Below are positions 57,845 to 64,000 of a DNA stretch of 64,000 nucleotides, in pieces. The stretch comes from a virus (taxonomy: Duplodnaviria > Caudoviricetes), in the IMG/VR virus record IMGVR_UViG_2728369139_000007, positions 765 through 64,764 of that record; one strand, given 5' to 3'. The notes under the pieces were generated by a model. The model was not told the DNA's origin. It worked only from the letters and a program-made list of their open reading frames with translations, and did not search any database. The number at the start of each line of letters is the position of its first letter. Within the stretch, counting starts at the first letter, position 1. The position numbers were made by a program, and so were the translations under genes.

Positions 57845-58072
57845 TTAAAATAAAGTTTGATTTTCTTGAACTTCAACACCTAAAAAAAGATTATATATGT
57901 CTTCTTCTAATATTTGCGCTATTTGCATTGCATCATCTAATGTTGGAGTTGCGTAGCCAGTTTCCCAATTACTGATTACCGTTTTCTGTTTATTTATCAA
58001 TGCCCCTAGTTGTTCCTGGGTAAAATTTTTACGTTTGCGAGCTTTAATTAAATTATGTCTTTTCTTTCCCAT
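57845..58072 (-). CDS. Cro-like XRE regulator
   Basis: TQEQLG...ISNWETGYATP; AGGAGG RBS. Confidence 0.85.
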   Translation of the reverse strand: MGKKRHNLIKARKRKNFTQEQLGALINKQKTVISNWETGYATPTLDDAMQIAQILEEDIYNLFLGVEVQENQTLF

Positions 58073-58290: not shown

Positions 58291-58659
58291 ATGACTATTT
58301 TAGGGCAAAGGATAAAACTTTCTAGAAAAAAACGTGGATTAACACAAGATGCATTAGCATTAAAGATAAAAGAAAAAATGGATACAGAAACTAAAGTAAC
58401 GAAAACTACAATTTCTAATTATGAAACAGGCTATAGTTCGCCATCTAATGAAACTTTAGTTATCATTTCAGATGTATTAGACGTATCTGTCGATTATTTA
58501 TTAGGTCGATCTGATGATCCAGAATTAAATGCAGTTCAGTTCACTGAATTAAGAAAAGAATTTAACGAGCTAATTGACATGTTAGAAAAAATGCCAAAAG
58601 AAAAACAAGATATGTTACTAGATATGATGAAGGCTGCTGTAGGCCATAACAAAAAATGA
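58291..58659 (+). CDS. XRE phage repressor (AimC-like, convergent with aimX)
   Basis: HTH TQDALA...ISNYETGYSSP...DVSVDYLLGR; no peptidase domain. Confidence 0.85.
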   Translation: MTILGQRIKLSRKKRGLTQDALALKIKEKMDTETKVTKTTISNYETGYSSPSNETLVIISDVLDVSVDYLLGRSDDPELNAVQFTELRKEFNELIDMLEKMPKEKQDMLLDMMKAAVGHNKK

Positions 58660-58690
58660 TTGTCAGCAATTGGGCTAACAATCATTTTTT
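58651..58690. terminator. Bidirectional terminator between repressor and aimX
   Basis: aaaaaatgattgt...acaatcatttttt. Confidence 0.75.
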
Positions 58691-58803
58691 TCTTTTTTAA
58701 CTATATTTTTTATGTTCTCTACCAATTTTTTTTCATTCTCATCTGTAGTTAATACTCCTAATTTTAACATTTCCCATAATGTGCTCTCTAGTACATTTTC
58801 CAT
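58675..58803 (-). CDS. aimX: Putative AimX, 42 aa (MENVLESTLWEMLKLGVLTTDENEKKLVENIKNIVKKEKNDC), not in ORF track
   Basis: GGGGGA RBS; canonical position after aimP and facing the repressor. Confidence 0.6.
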   Translation of the reverse strand: MENVLESTLWEMLKLGVLTTDENEKKLVENIKNIVKKEKNDC

Positions 58804-58877
58804 CGTCGCTTCCCCCATCATCCTTAATTATTCAAAAATATCAAAATGCAGAAAATGAATACCCCCCTAAACGTACG

Positions 58878-58922: not shown

Positions 58923-59072
58923 TTATCCTAAAGTACCCGGATCCATTTTCATTAATTGTGTCTCTTTTACGTTTCCTGCAGCTTGATCATCTTTAGTTGG
59001 TACCGAACCAATCGATATGACTGATAATGCGAGCGTACATGCAATAACTACACTAGCAATTATTTTTTTCAT
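58923..59072 (-). CDS. aimP: Arbitrium pre-pro-peptide AimP, 49 aa (MKKIIASVVIACTLALSVISIGSVPTKDDQAAGNVKETQLMKMDPGTLG), not in ORF track
   Basis: Sec signal peptide plus C-terminal MKMDPGTLG, immediately downstream of aimR. Confidence 0.88.
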   Translation of the reverse strand: MKKIIASVVIACTLALSVISIGSVPTKDDQAAGNVKETQLMKMDPGTLG

Positions 59073-59084
59073 TGTCACTATCCC

Positions 59085-60182
59085 TCACTTTAAAATATCA
59101 AAAATTTTTATGTAGAATAAGTTTCCGTCCTTTAAAAACCGATGATAAGCTTTTCTGCGCAGTTCTTCATCATTCGTTGCAACAGATAAATAAAAATCTT
59201 GGATTGCAGTTCGATTACTAATCCGATTTAATATTTCACAAGCTTCGCTTTTCTTGTTTTGACGGATATACTGTAACGCAATTTCAGCGTTATCATGTAT
59301 ATATTCTAATTTTACATGAATATTATGAATAATACAACAAAAAGCGGTCGTATTTTCCACTAATTTTCTTTTTAGTAATGATTTGTTATTCTTTATTTTT
59401 CTTAATTCTGAAAGTGATAGTTCAAAAAAATGTAATGCTTTATCAGGATCACAAAAAATATAACTTTCAGCAAATATACTTAGTGCTGTAGCTTTCATTA
59501 AAAGTGGAATCTCTTGTTTTTCTAGCACATTCTGTAACAATTCCCTTGCTGTTTTTACTTCGTCTTGCATTAAATATGCATATGCGCAAATTATATTTAA
59601 TTCAACTTCATTTAATGTCTTTTCCAAACCTTTTGGCATTCCATTAATTTTCTCTTGTATCATTCCTTGTATAACTGTTAATACATTATATGCTCCTAAA
59701 TCAAAATAGCCATATACACTTAAGGTGTTCACAAGAATATTCACACCTGTTTTATTTAGATTTACCTTTGTACGTAATATTTCAATTTCTTTAAGAAATG
59801 CTCCTGCTCTTAATGAATGTGTTTGTCTATCTAAACAGACACGGAATACATCTCTGTAATTATTAGTTACTGATTGTTTATATTCTTTCTTCACGAGGTC
59901 TTGAAGTAACTCTGTATAACCTGACAAATATAAATAATACATTGCAGTTCTTATATCTGCCTCTTTATCAGTACAATTTAAAAATTCTTTAACTACTTCC
60001 ATCTTCTGTTCTTCAGAATCAAGACCATTTAATATCTTAACTAATTTTGCGAAAGTCATAGGCACTTTTCCATTCAGTGTTTTCCATAAATTTGATTGTG
60101 ATAAATTTGTTATTTTTGAAAGCTTTAATGAATTTAATTCATCCTCTAAAATAATACCGCTTAAACTAGATACTTTATTCAT
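59085..60182 (-). CDS. aimR: AimR arbitrium receptor (N-terminal HTH plus helical TPR-like region), 365 aa
   Basis: Start MNKVSS after AAAGGAGG; HTH SQSNLWKTLNGK; C-terminal FLKDGNLFY; followed by a signal-peptide gene. Confidence 0.85.
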   Translation of the reverse strand: MNKVSSLSGIILEDELNSLKLSKITNLSQSNLWKTLNGKVPMTFAKLVKILNGLDSEEQKMEVVKEFLNCTDKEADIRTAMYYLYLSGYTELLQDLVKKEYKQSVTNNYRDVFRVCLDRQTHSLRAGAFLKEIEILRTKVNLNKTGVNILVNTLSVYGYFDLGAYNVLTVIQGMIQEKINGMPKGLEKTLNEVELNIICAYAYLMQDEVKTARELLQNVLEKQEIPLLMKATALSIFAESYIFCDPDKALHFFELSLSELRKIKNNKSLLKRKLVENTTAFCCIIHNIHVKLEYIHDNAEIALQYIRQNKKSEACEILNRISNRTAIQDFYLSVATNDEELRRKAYHRFLKDGNLFYIKIFDILK

Positions 60183-60282
60183 AATGAAGCCTCCTTTGAA
60201 CGCGAGACACCTTCCCTGAAATTTCTCAATAGAAAAACTATACCATTTAAGCTTTTTTGAATTTAATATGTTATACTTGTGC

Positions 60283-60372
60283 TGACTCATGGCAAGTGTT
60301 TTCCCTACCATATTAGGGGAACAGCATAAGAGTGGCTGCACACTACTTTTGCTGCGCTATGGGTCTTTTTTG
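60283..60372 (+). ncRNA. Putative structured small RNA antisense to the aimR leader
   Basis: TGTTATACT extended -10 near 60269; outer stem gactcatggc/gctatgggtc plus T-run enclosing two hairpins. Confidence 0.45.
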
Positions 60373-60617: not shown

Positions 60618-60962
60618 ATGAATACATTTGGAGAAAATTTAAAAAAGTTTAGAGCAAGTCGTTCCCTTACTCAATCAGAGTTCGGTGAAAAAGTACAGTT
60701 AAGTCGTAGTCAAGTTGGCAATTTAGAAATTAACTATAATCAACCTGATCTCGACACTCTCGATCGCATTGCAACGTATTTAGGTATTTCTGTTGATGCG
60801 TTAATGGGTAGAACGAGTACACCACATGAAAAGAACATAGCAAATGCCCTCGATGAAATTCAAACGGTTTTCGCAGGCCTGGATGAATCTCAACGAGAAC
60901 AATTTTGTAAACAACTCGTTTTATATGCAAAGTTCCTTAAAACTCATAACGAGCTGTTATGA
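60618..60962 (+). CDS. XRE HTH regulator, probably leaderless
   Basis: TQSEFGEKVQLSRSQVGNLE; TATACT -10 ends 6 nt before ATG; no SD. Confidence 0.85.
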   Translation: MNTFGENLKKFRASRSLTQSEFGEKVQLSRSQVGNLEINYNQPDLDTLDRIATYLGISVDALMGRTSTPHEKNIANALDEIQTVFAGLDESQREQFCKQLVLYAKFLKTHNELL

Positions 60963-61023
60963 GTCGATTGTAGTAGAAAACATTTCCAATCGCAACGGTA
61001 AAAATTAACAGATTTTTATCAAC

Positions 61024-61053
61024 AAAAAAAGAGAGCGCTTAGCTCTCTTTTTT
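61024..61053. terminator. Bidirectional terminator
   Basis: aaaaaaagagagc-gctta-gctctctttttt. Confidence 0.8.
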
Positions 61054-61231
61054 ATATTCCTGTGCCTGGATCTTTTATGTATCCTCCACCTACTCCAGGA
61101 TCATACATACCCATTCCACCGCCTGGATCAGTTGTATACCCGCCACCAGATCCTGGGTCCAAAATCCCCATTCCTGTACCTGGATCGAAAATCATCTTTG
61201 AACCACCTGGATCTTTTATGTACCTTTTCAT
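61052..61231 (-). CDS. Poly-DPG peptide array protein, 59 aa (six DPG units)
   Basis: AAGGGGGGA RBS; MKRYIKDPGGSKMIFDPGTGMGILDPGSGGGYTTDPGGGMGMYDPGVGGGYIKDPGTGI. Confidence 0.8.
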   Translation of the reverse strand: MKRYIKDPGGSKMIFDPGTGMGILDPGSGGGYTTDPGGGMGMYDPGVGGGYIKDPGTGI

Positions 61232-61248
61232 TTCGTTCCCCCCTTTTC

Positions 61249-61398
61249 TTATATACCTGTCCCTGGCCCAAAAATTGTTTTCCAACCTGTACCAGGGTCT
61301 TCATTACACTTCCAGCCACCACCGCCTGGTTCGTTGTGCCAACCTACATCAGGATCATTGGCTCTGTGACCACCAGGTTCCTTTGTGAATTCTCCCAT
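61249..61398 (-). CDS. Poly-(D/E)PG peptide array protein, 49 aa (five units)
   Basis: AAAGGAGG RBS; MGEFTKEPGGHRANDPDVGWHNEPGGGGWKCNEDPGTGWKTIFGPGTGI. Confidence 0.8.
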   Translation of the reverse strand: MGEFTKEPGGHRANDPDVGWHNEPGGGGWKCNEDPGTGWKTIFGPGTGI

Positions 61399-61685
61399 GT
61401 TCTCCCCTCCTTTATTCAATATACAAATATCGTAACCCACTTCTTTTATATCTGTAAATTTACTAAAACAAAAAAGAGCTTTTCAGCTCTTTTTTCAAAC
61501 TATTATGTATTTTGAAGTGGAAATTACCATTGCACTCAAATGATTTTAAGGACAATAAATTACACTATTTTACACACAGTGCTAGTAAATACTGCAATAG
61601 AATACAAAAAACACTAAACAAAATTATTAAAAATGATTGTAATTAATAATTAAACAGGATATACTAGCATTAGAAAAGCAGAAGA

Positions 61686-61750
61686 TGAGCTTGACTCTAA
61701 TCGAAGGCTTACGTTCCACGTGGGCTACTTACTAGATTGAGTGGGGCTCA
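61686..61750 (-). ncRNA. Structured RNA at the 3' end of the DUF3800 gene
   Basis: UGAGC/GCUCA, ACUC/GAGU and AAUC/GAUU stems enclosing a loop with CCACGUGG; no U-tail. Confidence 0.5.
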
Positions 61751-62593
61751 TCTTTTCTTTTTTCCTACATAATGCTTGTCCACTTTTCCAACAGATGGTG
61801 TGAACTTCCAATGTCTGTATGGATGTAACCATTTATCCCTCATACTAGATTTACCTGTGCTTTCTCCAATATTGAAATTCGGATATATTTCACGGATATT
61901 TTGATTAATGAACTTATATAATTTTTCCTTGGCAATAGTTCTTTTTCCACGTGTTCTTTGACCTTCTGGTTTAGCTTTGTGTTTTTCGTTCAGCCTAAAT
62001 TCCATGGCTCCTAAAATTACATCTAAGCATTGAAGTATATCATGGTTATGAGACTTTGCTTCAGCGATATCATCCTTACTATTGAAGAATAAGTTCGCTT
62101 TCTTAAACTCTTCCATATACTGAAGCTTGTAGATGTAATCTATGAACTCACGGTTTTTTTCTTTGGTATCGGGCAATTGGTCAAAATATGTGTACAAAGA
62201 AATAGGATTTCTTGTGTTATTTGAATATTGAAAACCAAAAGCATGCTTGAAAAACTGATAATACAACAAGAAATACTCTTTGTCACGTTGTTCTTTTGTA
62301 AGATTGGTAGCAAGGTTTTTGTTATGAGTAAACATTATCCTTATCTTTACTTTATCTTGCTTTATAAAATCAAAAAAACATTTCATAAGCTCCATATACT
62401 TTTCAAGATAATTTGCAGTAACTTTTTGCCACTTTACCTCTCCAGAAAAACCAAGCTCAACCTTCTTTGCCGCTAAAGCATCTTTTACTTCATGGAAATG
62501 AATAGATCTTACAAGTGCTCCACCGTAAAAATTCCCAAAAAACTTGCCATTCTTTTCTGATTCATCACAGTAAATAATATATTGCATTTGCAT
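61748..62593 (-). CDS. DUF3800-domain protein (RNase H-like fold)
   Basis: IYCDES, EVKW, YFDQ and LQCLDVILGA motifs. Confidence 0.82.
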   Translation of the reverse strand: MQMQYIIYCDESEKNGKFFGNFYGGALVRSIHFHEVKDALAAKKVELGFSGEVKWQKVTANYLEKYMELMKCFFDFIKQDKVKIRIMFTHNKNLATNLTKEQRDKEYFLLYYQFFKHAFGFQYSNNTRNPISLYTYFDQLPDTKEKNREFIDYIYKLQYMEEFKKANLFFNSKDDIAEAKSHNHDILQCLDVILGAMEFRLNEKHKAKPEGQRTRGKRTIAKEKLYKFINQNIREIYPNFNIGESTGKSSMRDKWLHPYRHWKFTPSVGKVDKHYVGKKKR

Positions 62594-62869: not shown

Positions 62870-64000
62870 ATGGCATACTTTCGTAAACGCGGTGAGAAGT
62901 GGTCTTTTACTATGGATGTCGGCAAAGACCCTATCACAGGTAAACGAAAACAAATCACTAAAGGTGGTTTTAAAACAAAGAAAGCTGCCCAGGAAGAAGC
63001 AGCTAGAGTAACAAATGATTTAGCAAATGGAGATTATGAGAATAGTGATATTCGCTTTTCTCAACTCGTAGAAATCTGGATGCAAGAGAAAGAAACATCA
63101 TGTAGACCATCAACATTGTATCAATACAAACGCATTCTACGCTCACGTGTTATGCCTGAATTTGCCGATAAGAGGTTATCAGATATAAAACCTCTTACAG
63201 TGCATAATTTTCACCAGAAGCTGCTTAAAGAGGGGCTAACTACAAAATACATTTCATCCGTTGATGTTATGTTAAAGCAAATCCTTGATAAAGGTGTAGA
63301 GCTAGAAATGATTAACTCAAATCCTGCAAAGAAAGCAAAGCGACCAAAGGTGAAAAAGAAAGCACAAGCTAGTTGGACAATCGACCAAGCTATGAAGTTT
63401 ATGGAGTATGCAAAAATAAAAGGCAGTTACTACATTGCATTTGTTTTGGCACTGCATACAGGCATGCGTATTGGTGAGGTATTAGCTTTACAGTGGGATG
63501 ATATTAATTTCGATAATAAAGCTATTCATGTACAACGAACGTTAACACTCGTGGATGGTAAATATGAATTAGGTGAGACAAAAACAGAAGCATCTAATCG
63601 TGTGATCCCAATGACGGAAGAATTAATGGAAGAATTGTTGGATTATCAAAATCATAAAAAAGAGAATTCCTTCGATTTATTAATTTGCACGAGAAATAAA
63701 AAAATCGTGCATCCATATACGATACGTTATCAAATGAAAGCTTTGTGCGAAGCAATTGACGTACCGTATATTAGATTCCACGATATCCGAAGAACGTTTA
63801 CAACTATTTTAATCGATTCTGGCGCAAATGCAAAGGTTGTTGCAAAATTACTTGGTCACACAAATGTTTCCACAACCTTAAATATTTATACGGATACGTA
63901 TGAAGAACGTCAAATTGAAGCGACTGAAAAGCTCGGAAATGTACTAAAAAGTGGTCGAAGTGGTCAAAATGTGGTCAATGGTGAAAATCAAGAGGGGTAA
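62870..64000 (+). CDS. int: Tyrosine integrase with N-terminal arm-binding domain
   Basis: DPITGKRKQITKGGFKTKK; TGMRIGE, RFHDIRR, LLGH...TLNIY. Confidence 0.95.
   Translation: MAYFRKRGEKWSFTMDVGKDPITGKRKQITKGGFKTKKAAQEEAARVTNDLANGDYENSDIRFSQLVEIWMQEKETSCRPSTLYQYKRILRSRVMPEFADKRLSDIKPLTVHNFHQKLLKEGLTTKYISSVDVMLKQILDKGVELEMINSNPAKKAKRPKVKKKAQASWTIDQAMKFMEYAKIKGSYYIAFVLALHTGMRIGEVLALQWDDINFDNKAIHVQRTLTLVDGKYELGETKTEASNRVIPMTEELMEELLDYQNHKKENSFDLLICTRNKKIVHPYTIRYQMKALCEAIDVPYIRFHDIRRTFTTILIDSGANAKVVAKLLGHTNVSTTLNIYTDTYEERQIEATEKLGNVLKSGRSGQNVVNGENQEG
63951..63978 (+). repeat. Candidate integrase arm-type sites
   Basis: GTGGTC at 63951, 63960 and 63971 in the 3' end of int. Confidence 0.55.

Follow-up and report, generated by a model that had tools for sequence, protein, structure and literature searches.

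Two small genes of a provirus encode little more than a tandem array of units that resemble mature arbitrium signal peptides, and they lie a short distance from an arbitrium system with a signal of its own. What such an array does beside a peptide-controlled lysis-lysogeny switch is the question raised by this locus. The genes form a cassette on the minus strand of the window, i.e., the whole stretch of 64,000 nt analysed here, which derives from an IMG/VR provirus record, and are situated between the integrase gene and an extended arbitrium module (aimR-aimP-aimX-aimC-aimL). An earlier note on this DNA had proposed that the lysogen makes an intracellular bank of non-self signals directed against competing phages. 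Based on comparisons with natural AimPs, homologous cassettes and their genomic contexts, we tentatively favour a reading of this kind, to which we give somewhat less than an even chance: the leaderless products of the cassette may provide non-cognate arbitrium ligands by which rival AimR receptors are switched off.

Organisation of the locus

The region from the integrase gene to the arbitrium module comprises the following features (window coordinates, strand).

62870-64000, plus: tyrosine integrase gene, running off the window end
61748-62593, minus: DUF3800 gene (PF12686, E 3.4e-9; PADLOC PDC-M04A, E 2.2e-17)
61470-61495, minus: terminator hairpin upstream of the cassette (scan and fold; -13.2 kcal/mol, z -3.5)
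61429-61458, minus: promoter-like site of the cassette, TTTACA-18 nt-TACGAT (scan and alignment)
61249-61398, minus: DPG-A (P0001), 49 aa, five AimP-like units, without signal peptide
61052-61231, minus: DPG-B (P0002), 59 aa, six AimP-like units, C-terminus DPGTGI
61018-61053, minus: terminator hairpin (about 61053-61025) and U run at the cassette end (-15.1 kcal/mol, z -3.7)
60618-60962, plus: XRE-type HTH gene, oriented towards the cassette and away from aimR
59085-60341, minus: aimR (NF038310, 287.6 bits at a cut-off of 70; PF22871)
58923-59078, minus: aimP, with signal peptide and a tail ending in MKMDPGTLG
58675-58821, minus: candidate aimX (by position only), a 48-aa ORF 3' of aimP and adjacent to the convergent HTH gene
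58291-58659, plus: aimC-like HTH repressor gene, convergent
57845-58072, minus: aimL-like (cro-like) HTH gene, divergent

The start codons of both cassette genes are preceded by a GGAGG-type ribosome-binding site, located in case of DPG-A at about 61405-61411, and the downstream hairpin with its U run overlaps the stop codon of DPG-B. The two adjacent small genes with strong ribosome-binding sites and a downstream terminator, as claimed in the earlier note, were thus recovered. The upstream hairpin (61495-61470) represents the end of the DUF3800 transcript. An alignment of 10 upstream regions revealed that the promoter is kept across homologous cassettes, most of which show TTTACA, 18 nt and the -10 hexamer TACAAT; the hexamer TACGAT of the window is weaker than this family consensus. 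No 10-mer is common to the cassette promoter and the region upstream of aimX, and a shared operator is thus unsupported.

A Pro-rich ORF of 108 aa is open on the plus strand opposite both cassette genes (61062-61388); it mirrors their Gly/Pro codons and lacks start signals of its own. Support for the cassette strand as the coding strand comes from the ribosome-binding sites, the kept frames and the codon variety. In RNA run X4, contig depth amounts to 4.7 for the cassette, compared to 438 for aimR-aimP, 216 for the XRE gene, 81 for the DUF3800 gene and 30 for aimC, whereby contig depth is a poor measure, DNA carry-over is possible and X4 is a single informative run. Run X1 shows a flat depth of ~66 over the whole region and is therefore uninformative, run X20 (another strain) covers the XRE gene only, and zero reads of run X22 were placed.

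The DUF3800 gene is a neighbour that lies outside the cassette. PDC-M04A is a candidate defence family, and the match to it indicates that the slot between integrase and aimR holds accessory or defence cargo. An XRE homolog was found in 21 of 26 cassette loci compared to 20 of 72 loci without cassette, a crude count that is not restricted to the upstream side and may include aimC. The start of aimR is probably located near 60182, since the close homolog in L122 is 365 aa long and an RNA contig terminates at 60190; the longest ORF (418 aa, GTG start) is thus probably over-extended. The order of aimR, aimP, a small same-strand ORF, a convergent HTH gene and a divergent cro-like HTH gene agrees with the extended layout aimR-aimP-aimX-aimC-aimL described in 10.1101/2025.11.23.689978, the relevant passages of which deal with the genes downstream of aimR and do not mention the cassette genes upstream. 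The nearby AimP of the phage itself, ending in MKMDPGTLG, had already been noticed earlier and was recovered.

A small protein family of the Bacillus cereus group

The cassette contains 11 units in 108 aa. Each unit consists of two to four residues, the motif D/E-P-G and a Gly-rich tail, and the units follow one another head to tail, so that mature-peptide-like units are repeated in tandem within one polypeptide, as is characteristic of a multi-copy precursor. Every unit listed in the earlier note for DPG-A and DPG-B is present as written, including EPGGGGW in DPG-A. By inspection, neither protein has a hydrophobic N-terminal stretch, in agreement with the previously claimed lack of a signal peptide. 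No linked protease, exporter or processing signal was seen beside the cassette among the window ORFs and in two plasmid loci. AlphaFold2 with the family alignment resulted in a mean pLDDT of 44, a pTM of 0.12 and zero secondary structure; the proteins are accordingly predicted to be disordered, as expected of a peptide precursor.

The cassette proteins had no match in Pfam and NCBIfam, no usable match in the ESM Atlas, a sole match with E 0.25 in PHROGs and, for P0001 and P0002 at E <= 1, none among the PADLOC defence families. Three queries remained unmatched among 50,697 phage records, in which the low-complexity filter of BLAST may hide protein matches and near-identical entries may be absent. 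A word-indexed search with P0002 yielded 40 proteins with E <= 0.01 among 50 candidates. These relatives are 39-89 aa long, all of them originate from B. cereus-group species, and the named ones are without exception annotated as hypothetical. Exhaustive comparison of P0001 with 1.84 billion representatives gave 13 matches with E <= 0.001, namely 8 short family members and 5 unrelated long repeat proteins. In a scan of genome contigs with P0002, 2 of 79 candidate stretches were confirmed. The family is small and its range is the B. cereus group only. Due to its preservation as a family across named species of this group (the 40 matches mentioned above) and to the annotation of members as CDS in RefSeq, the ORF pattern is above chance.

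In the family alignment the N- and C-terminal parts are conserved, while whole units were gained or lost in between. Frames are open across species, lengths change by whole units, and the units occupy conserved positions within the gene family (positional homology). Both unit number and unit content differ among family members, as had been anticipated. The longest relative is a frame-shifted fusion of both genes and the sole long form among 165 candidates. In case of L122:1488-1637 and L123:5320-5469, a cassette gene of 150 bp carries the PLSDB RGI label “FIM-1 beta-lactamase, identity 100%”, apparently a spurious resistance annotation of a Gly-rich mini-ORF.

Unit tails and natural AimP tails

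A library of 66 AimPs with an xPG tail, obtained from 78 aimR loci, comprises 31 distinct tails. Nearly all natural AimPs follow the arrangement M/Y/R-M-V (and similar), DPG and a Gly-rich tail. On the side of the family, 84 distinct proteins were retained by a hydrophobic-run filter, and 24 of the 31 natural tails occur verbatim in them. Considering tails of at least 6 aa, verbatim occurrence was observed for 15 of 22, far above the controls: 5 of 96 scrambled tails (Fisher P 5e-10) and 33 of 658 tails with a single substitution (Fisher P 7e-14) were found, and column shuffling, which keeps the positional composition, gave a mean of 7.3 of 22 (sd 1.75, maximum 12) with none of 2000 shuffles reaching 15. 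The comparison of units with mature AimP C-termini that the earlier note had proposed as a check therefore came out in favour of its claim.

Most unit occurrences in the family (266 out of 327) start like a natural tail, and the C-terminus of 45 of the 84 proteins is identical to that of a natural AimP (DPGTGI in 39, DPGGW in 4 and GPGTGV in 2 cases). The C-terminal DPGTGI of DPG-B is identical to the AimP tail in loci L102 and L106. The peptides MMSEPGGGGW (Waukesha92-like) and EIKPGG (Wbeta), which the earlier note had named, were confirmed by passages of PMC11945551; the EPGGGGW of DPG-A equals the tail of the former. Codon identity of matched tails is 0.47 compared to an expected 0.40, and only 1 of 160 pairs is fully identical. 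These differing codons indicate that the likeness was kept at the peptide level and does not stem from recent DNA capture; that the cassette acquired its tails from aimP DNA is thus unsupported. Since, in addition, the units reside at conserved family positions, the suggestion that the unit content is a record of competitors is weakened.

Some observations are less easily accommodated. The two to three residues in front of DPG differ systematically between units and natural peptides: of 64 natural AimPs, 42 have M at position -2 and 31 have V at position -1, whereas in the cassette units K, Y or S predominate at -1 and I, M or T at -2. According to the part of PMC8878798 that deals with the Wbeta peptide, its action is abolished without the first residue, and the heads may therefore matter. 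Furthermore, none of the 66 sampled AimPs corresponds to frequent units such as DPGAGG (14 occurrences), DPGVGW (12) and DPGVGG (11). Judged from the alignment, conserved termini and positional homology exceed what a free peptide library would need.

With respect to the phage's own signal, the earlier note had stressed that the units differ from the cognate peptide. This holds insofar as the own tail never occurs exactly in the own cassette (0 of 23 distinct combinations), but the avoidance lacks statistical significance, as this outcome has a naive probability of 0.37 when each cassette holds about 20% of the non-self tails and just 6 tail types are involved, and at L080 a DPGGGW signal is accompanied by a cassette ending in EPGGGW, a near-self unit that differs by D to E only. 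As an anecdotal observation, the sole cassette beside a GPGTGV signal lacks the otherwise typical C-terminal PGTG unit.

The aberrant unit heads and the conserved family termini, together with the lack of a family match and of a fold, would also be compatible with a Gly/Pro-rich disordered accessory protein that has nothing to do with AimR, e.g., one that acts as a decoy of a host peptidase or of some other target in the host. In this case the likeness to AimP would go back to old common descent or shared constraints, and the adjacency to aimR to a shared insertion hot spot between integrase and lysogeny module, in which the adjacent slot indeed holds another accessory gene, the candidate defence gene mentioned above. 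We consider this explanation unlikely, because natural tails are matched more often than the scrambled, substituted and column-shuffled controls and the likeness persists despite differing codons, and because the family and the DPG-type AimPs occur in the same narrow taxonomic range.

Linkage to aimR and distribution

In IMG/VR, all 19 distinct cassette-bearing provirus contigs carry aimR 0.4-0.9 kb downstream on the same strand, whereby these contigs are related samples found by likeness to the window proteins and include one with a broken aimR and one that nearly duplicates the window. The family profile matched 7 of 70 scored species-representative genomes (one more genome was unscored). 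A match at G027:C333 (17 aa, E 5.6e-4) was rejected as spurious due to the lack of an ORF with three or more units at this locus. A motif scan added one further locus, resulting in 8 credible genome loci. For 6 of these the cassette is located 0.45-1.7 kb upstream of aimR on the same strand; the naive genome-wide chance of such a linkage, ~3e-21, is overstated since both gene types inhabit prophage lysogeny regions. One of the two other loci abuts a contig end beside an integrase gene. At L031 the cassette is situated beside the integrase gene in a prophage with a non-arbitrium repressor module, and this genome lacks an aimR match, which would fit a target encoded elsewhere.

Two plasmid records show the order integrase, two or three cassette genes, XRE, aimR and aimP. 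One of the plasmids is pBMB426 of B. thuringiensis sv. galleriae 4G5, whose cassette includes an EPGGGGW unit, and the cassette genes of both are annotated as CDS by RefSeq. Co-occurrence of homologous ORFs with aimR, the second check proposed earlier, was hence observed in the provirus contigs, in most genome loci and in both plasmids. Viewed from the opposite side, 6 of 78 fetched aimR loci have a cassette and 72 lack it; 45 of 71 genomes contained a total of 83 aimR places, five of which were partial fragments and are excluded from these loci.

A quick maximum-likelihood tree of 88 AimRs, in which the viral rows were sampled with bias, places the cassette beside at least 5 separate AimR lineages, which requires at least 5 separate gains or losses. 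Carriage is concentrated in two lineages, DPGTH with 10 of 10 rows and DPGTLG/DPGTIG with 7 of 9. Near-identical cassettes are located beside differing AimRs at L034 (DPGTLG) and L035 (DPGTH). Due to the association with at least 5 AimR lineages under one conserved promoter, the cassette is a mobile module and not part of one AimR type.

This distribution bears on the explanation that the cassette tunes the arbitrium system of its own phage by means of products that act on the adjacent AimR as weak agonists, as antagonists or as a buffer, and thus sets the lysis-lysogeny threshold. Such a role would account for the tight adjacency to aimR and for the fact that the main host signals DPGTH and DPGTLG/DPGTIG are one or two residues away from common DPGTG units. 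Nevertheless we hold it to be quite unlikely, given that near-identical cassettes accompany very different AimR lineages and signals at L034 and L035, that the cassette of L031 resides in a prophage and a genome without aimR, that 72 of 78 aimR loci work without cassette, and that the cassette promoter and the region upstream of aimX have no 10-mer in common.

Four cassette genes in a row were found in a B. fungorum prophage (L023, G001:C1, ~423352-424003). The genome contains five full-length aimR loci and one broken fragment, and 3 of the 4 other AimP tails of this genome occur in its cassette, numbers that are too small to test.

Proposed mode of action

For the favoured reading, a source of non-cognate ligands acting on rival receptors, the following course may be envisaged. 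After translation, the proteins would deliver their ligands either intact, by way of the free C-terminal unit, or upon cytoplasmic cleavage between units, for which the hydrophobic or basic residues between the units could provide the sites. The ligands would then bind, as agonists or possibly as antagonists, to AimR receptors of further arbitrium phages present in this cell. A ligand-bound rival AimR would no longer activate aimX, AimX would not be made, and the AimC repressor of the rival would stay active. As a consequence, the rival would enter or stay in lysogeny, and the host together with the resident prophage would be spared, which would be the benefit of the cassette.

The rival-silencing outcome is plausible in view of two recent studies. 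In B. subtilis phages, non-cognate AimPs repress AimR, promote lysogeny of the incoming phage and reduce induction, as stated in passages of PMC13220667, and a gain of the emitting prophage from cross-talk is argued for in parts of 10.1101/2025.10.13.681967. On the other hand, according to passages of 10.1101/2025.11.23.689978 a Waukesha92-like phage infects, lysogenises and plaques on strain 4G5. Since this strain is still permissive despite its EPGGGGW cassette, jamming would there be at most partial.

With slightly more reserve than for the basic reading, we suggest that the cassette is a dedicated gene set for signal forgery. One leaderless polypeptide would deliver the signals of many rivals, in the lysogen or on lysis, and lock the AimRs of several competitor lineages in a state of “go lysogenic / stay dormant”, while the phage's own, deliberately different signal channel would stay clear.

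A variant with extracellular action assumes release of the proteins at host lysis or by another route, cleavage by an extracellular protease, import by neighbouring cells and, as a result, public jamming. Natural pro-AimPs mature outside the cell (as described in part of PMC11945551), the units correspond to mature peptides in size and layout, and the low RNA coverage in lysogen culture would fit an expression during lytic growth. Even so, this variant is distinctly improbable, as the cassette proteins lack a signal peptide and as the own promoter, the bounding terminators and the neighbouring integrase gene are reminiscent of a gene expressed from the prophage. That the ORFs are non-functional, i.e., a repeat-rich remnant or a case in which DNA or RNA repeats matter rather than protein, is hardly tenable: low-complexity repeats, the open opposite strand and the low RNA coverage would agree with it, but each gene has kept a ribosome-binding site and a start codon, frames stay open across species with lengths changing unit by unit, codons vary for identical units, and the sole long form is the frame-shifted fusion.

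Relation to known systems

The cassette units share with the AimPs of B. cereus-group phages the arrangement of head, DPG and Gly-rich tail, many identical tails and, in about half of the family (45 of 84), a natural C-terminus. In contrast to AimP, the cassette proteins lack a signal peptide, contain five to six units where AimP has one or, rarely, two, and differ in their head residues. Moreover, whereas aimP directly follows aimR, the cassette precedes this gene and forms a separate operon that has a promoter and terminators of its own. The two-unit AimPs (L038:3642-3827, L105 and L107) resemble the cassette proteins in having more than one DPG unit per precursor; they are distinguished by a signal peptide, the position downstream of aimR and long inter-unit spacers. 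Such AimPs may be an evolutionary intermediate on the way to the multi-unit cassette.

Inhibitor peptides of RRNPP systems, e.g., iCF10 of the enterococcal plasmid pCF10, are peptides of mobile elements that compete at a pheromone receptor, and multi-copy peptide precursors contain several peptide copies per precursor. Peptides of both types are secreted and of single specificity or present in identical copies, whereas the cassette is leaderless and comprises many different units.

The proposed silencing of rival AimRs by non-cognate peptides, the lysogeny of the rival and the benefit to the emitter are in common with arbitrium cross-talk as presented in portions of PMC13220667 and 10.1101/2025.10.13.681967. 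Both studies concern B. subtilis phages, with the AimP that the emitter itself secretes as the ligand, whereas the cassette would provide a dedicated, leaderless multi-unit product without the carrier's own signal. Cassette-like genes are not mentioned in the abstracts, one discussion and passages of both sources. A full-text literature search retrieved no paper on leaderless multi-unit AimP-like genes or dedicated arbitrium mimics, although supplements of preprints might list such ORFs unnamed. On the grounds of sequence and genomic context, the cassette is a new, unannotated component linked to arbitrium loci, for which we infer the function given above.

Meaning for arbitrium biology

Cross-talk and manipulation between phages by means of arbitrium were shown only in 2025-2026, and only for the secreted peptide of each phage itself. 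The question raised by the cassette is directly testable, since reporter systems are published and plasmid pBMB426 of the laboratory strain 4G5 carries a cassette. If the proposed function is true, the units would constitute a natural panel of peptide variants for the mapping of AimR specificity, and the cassette would be the sixth component of B. cereus-group arbitrium loci. It would also offer an explanation for rival prophages that are kept quiet in polylysogens with many AimR systems, and it would mean that phages have evolved dedicated, i.e., mobile, multi-unit and leaderless, tools to forge the signals of their competitors.
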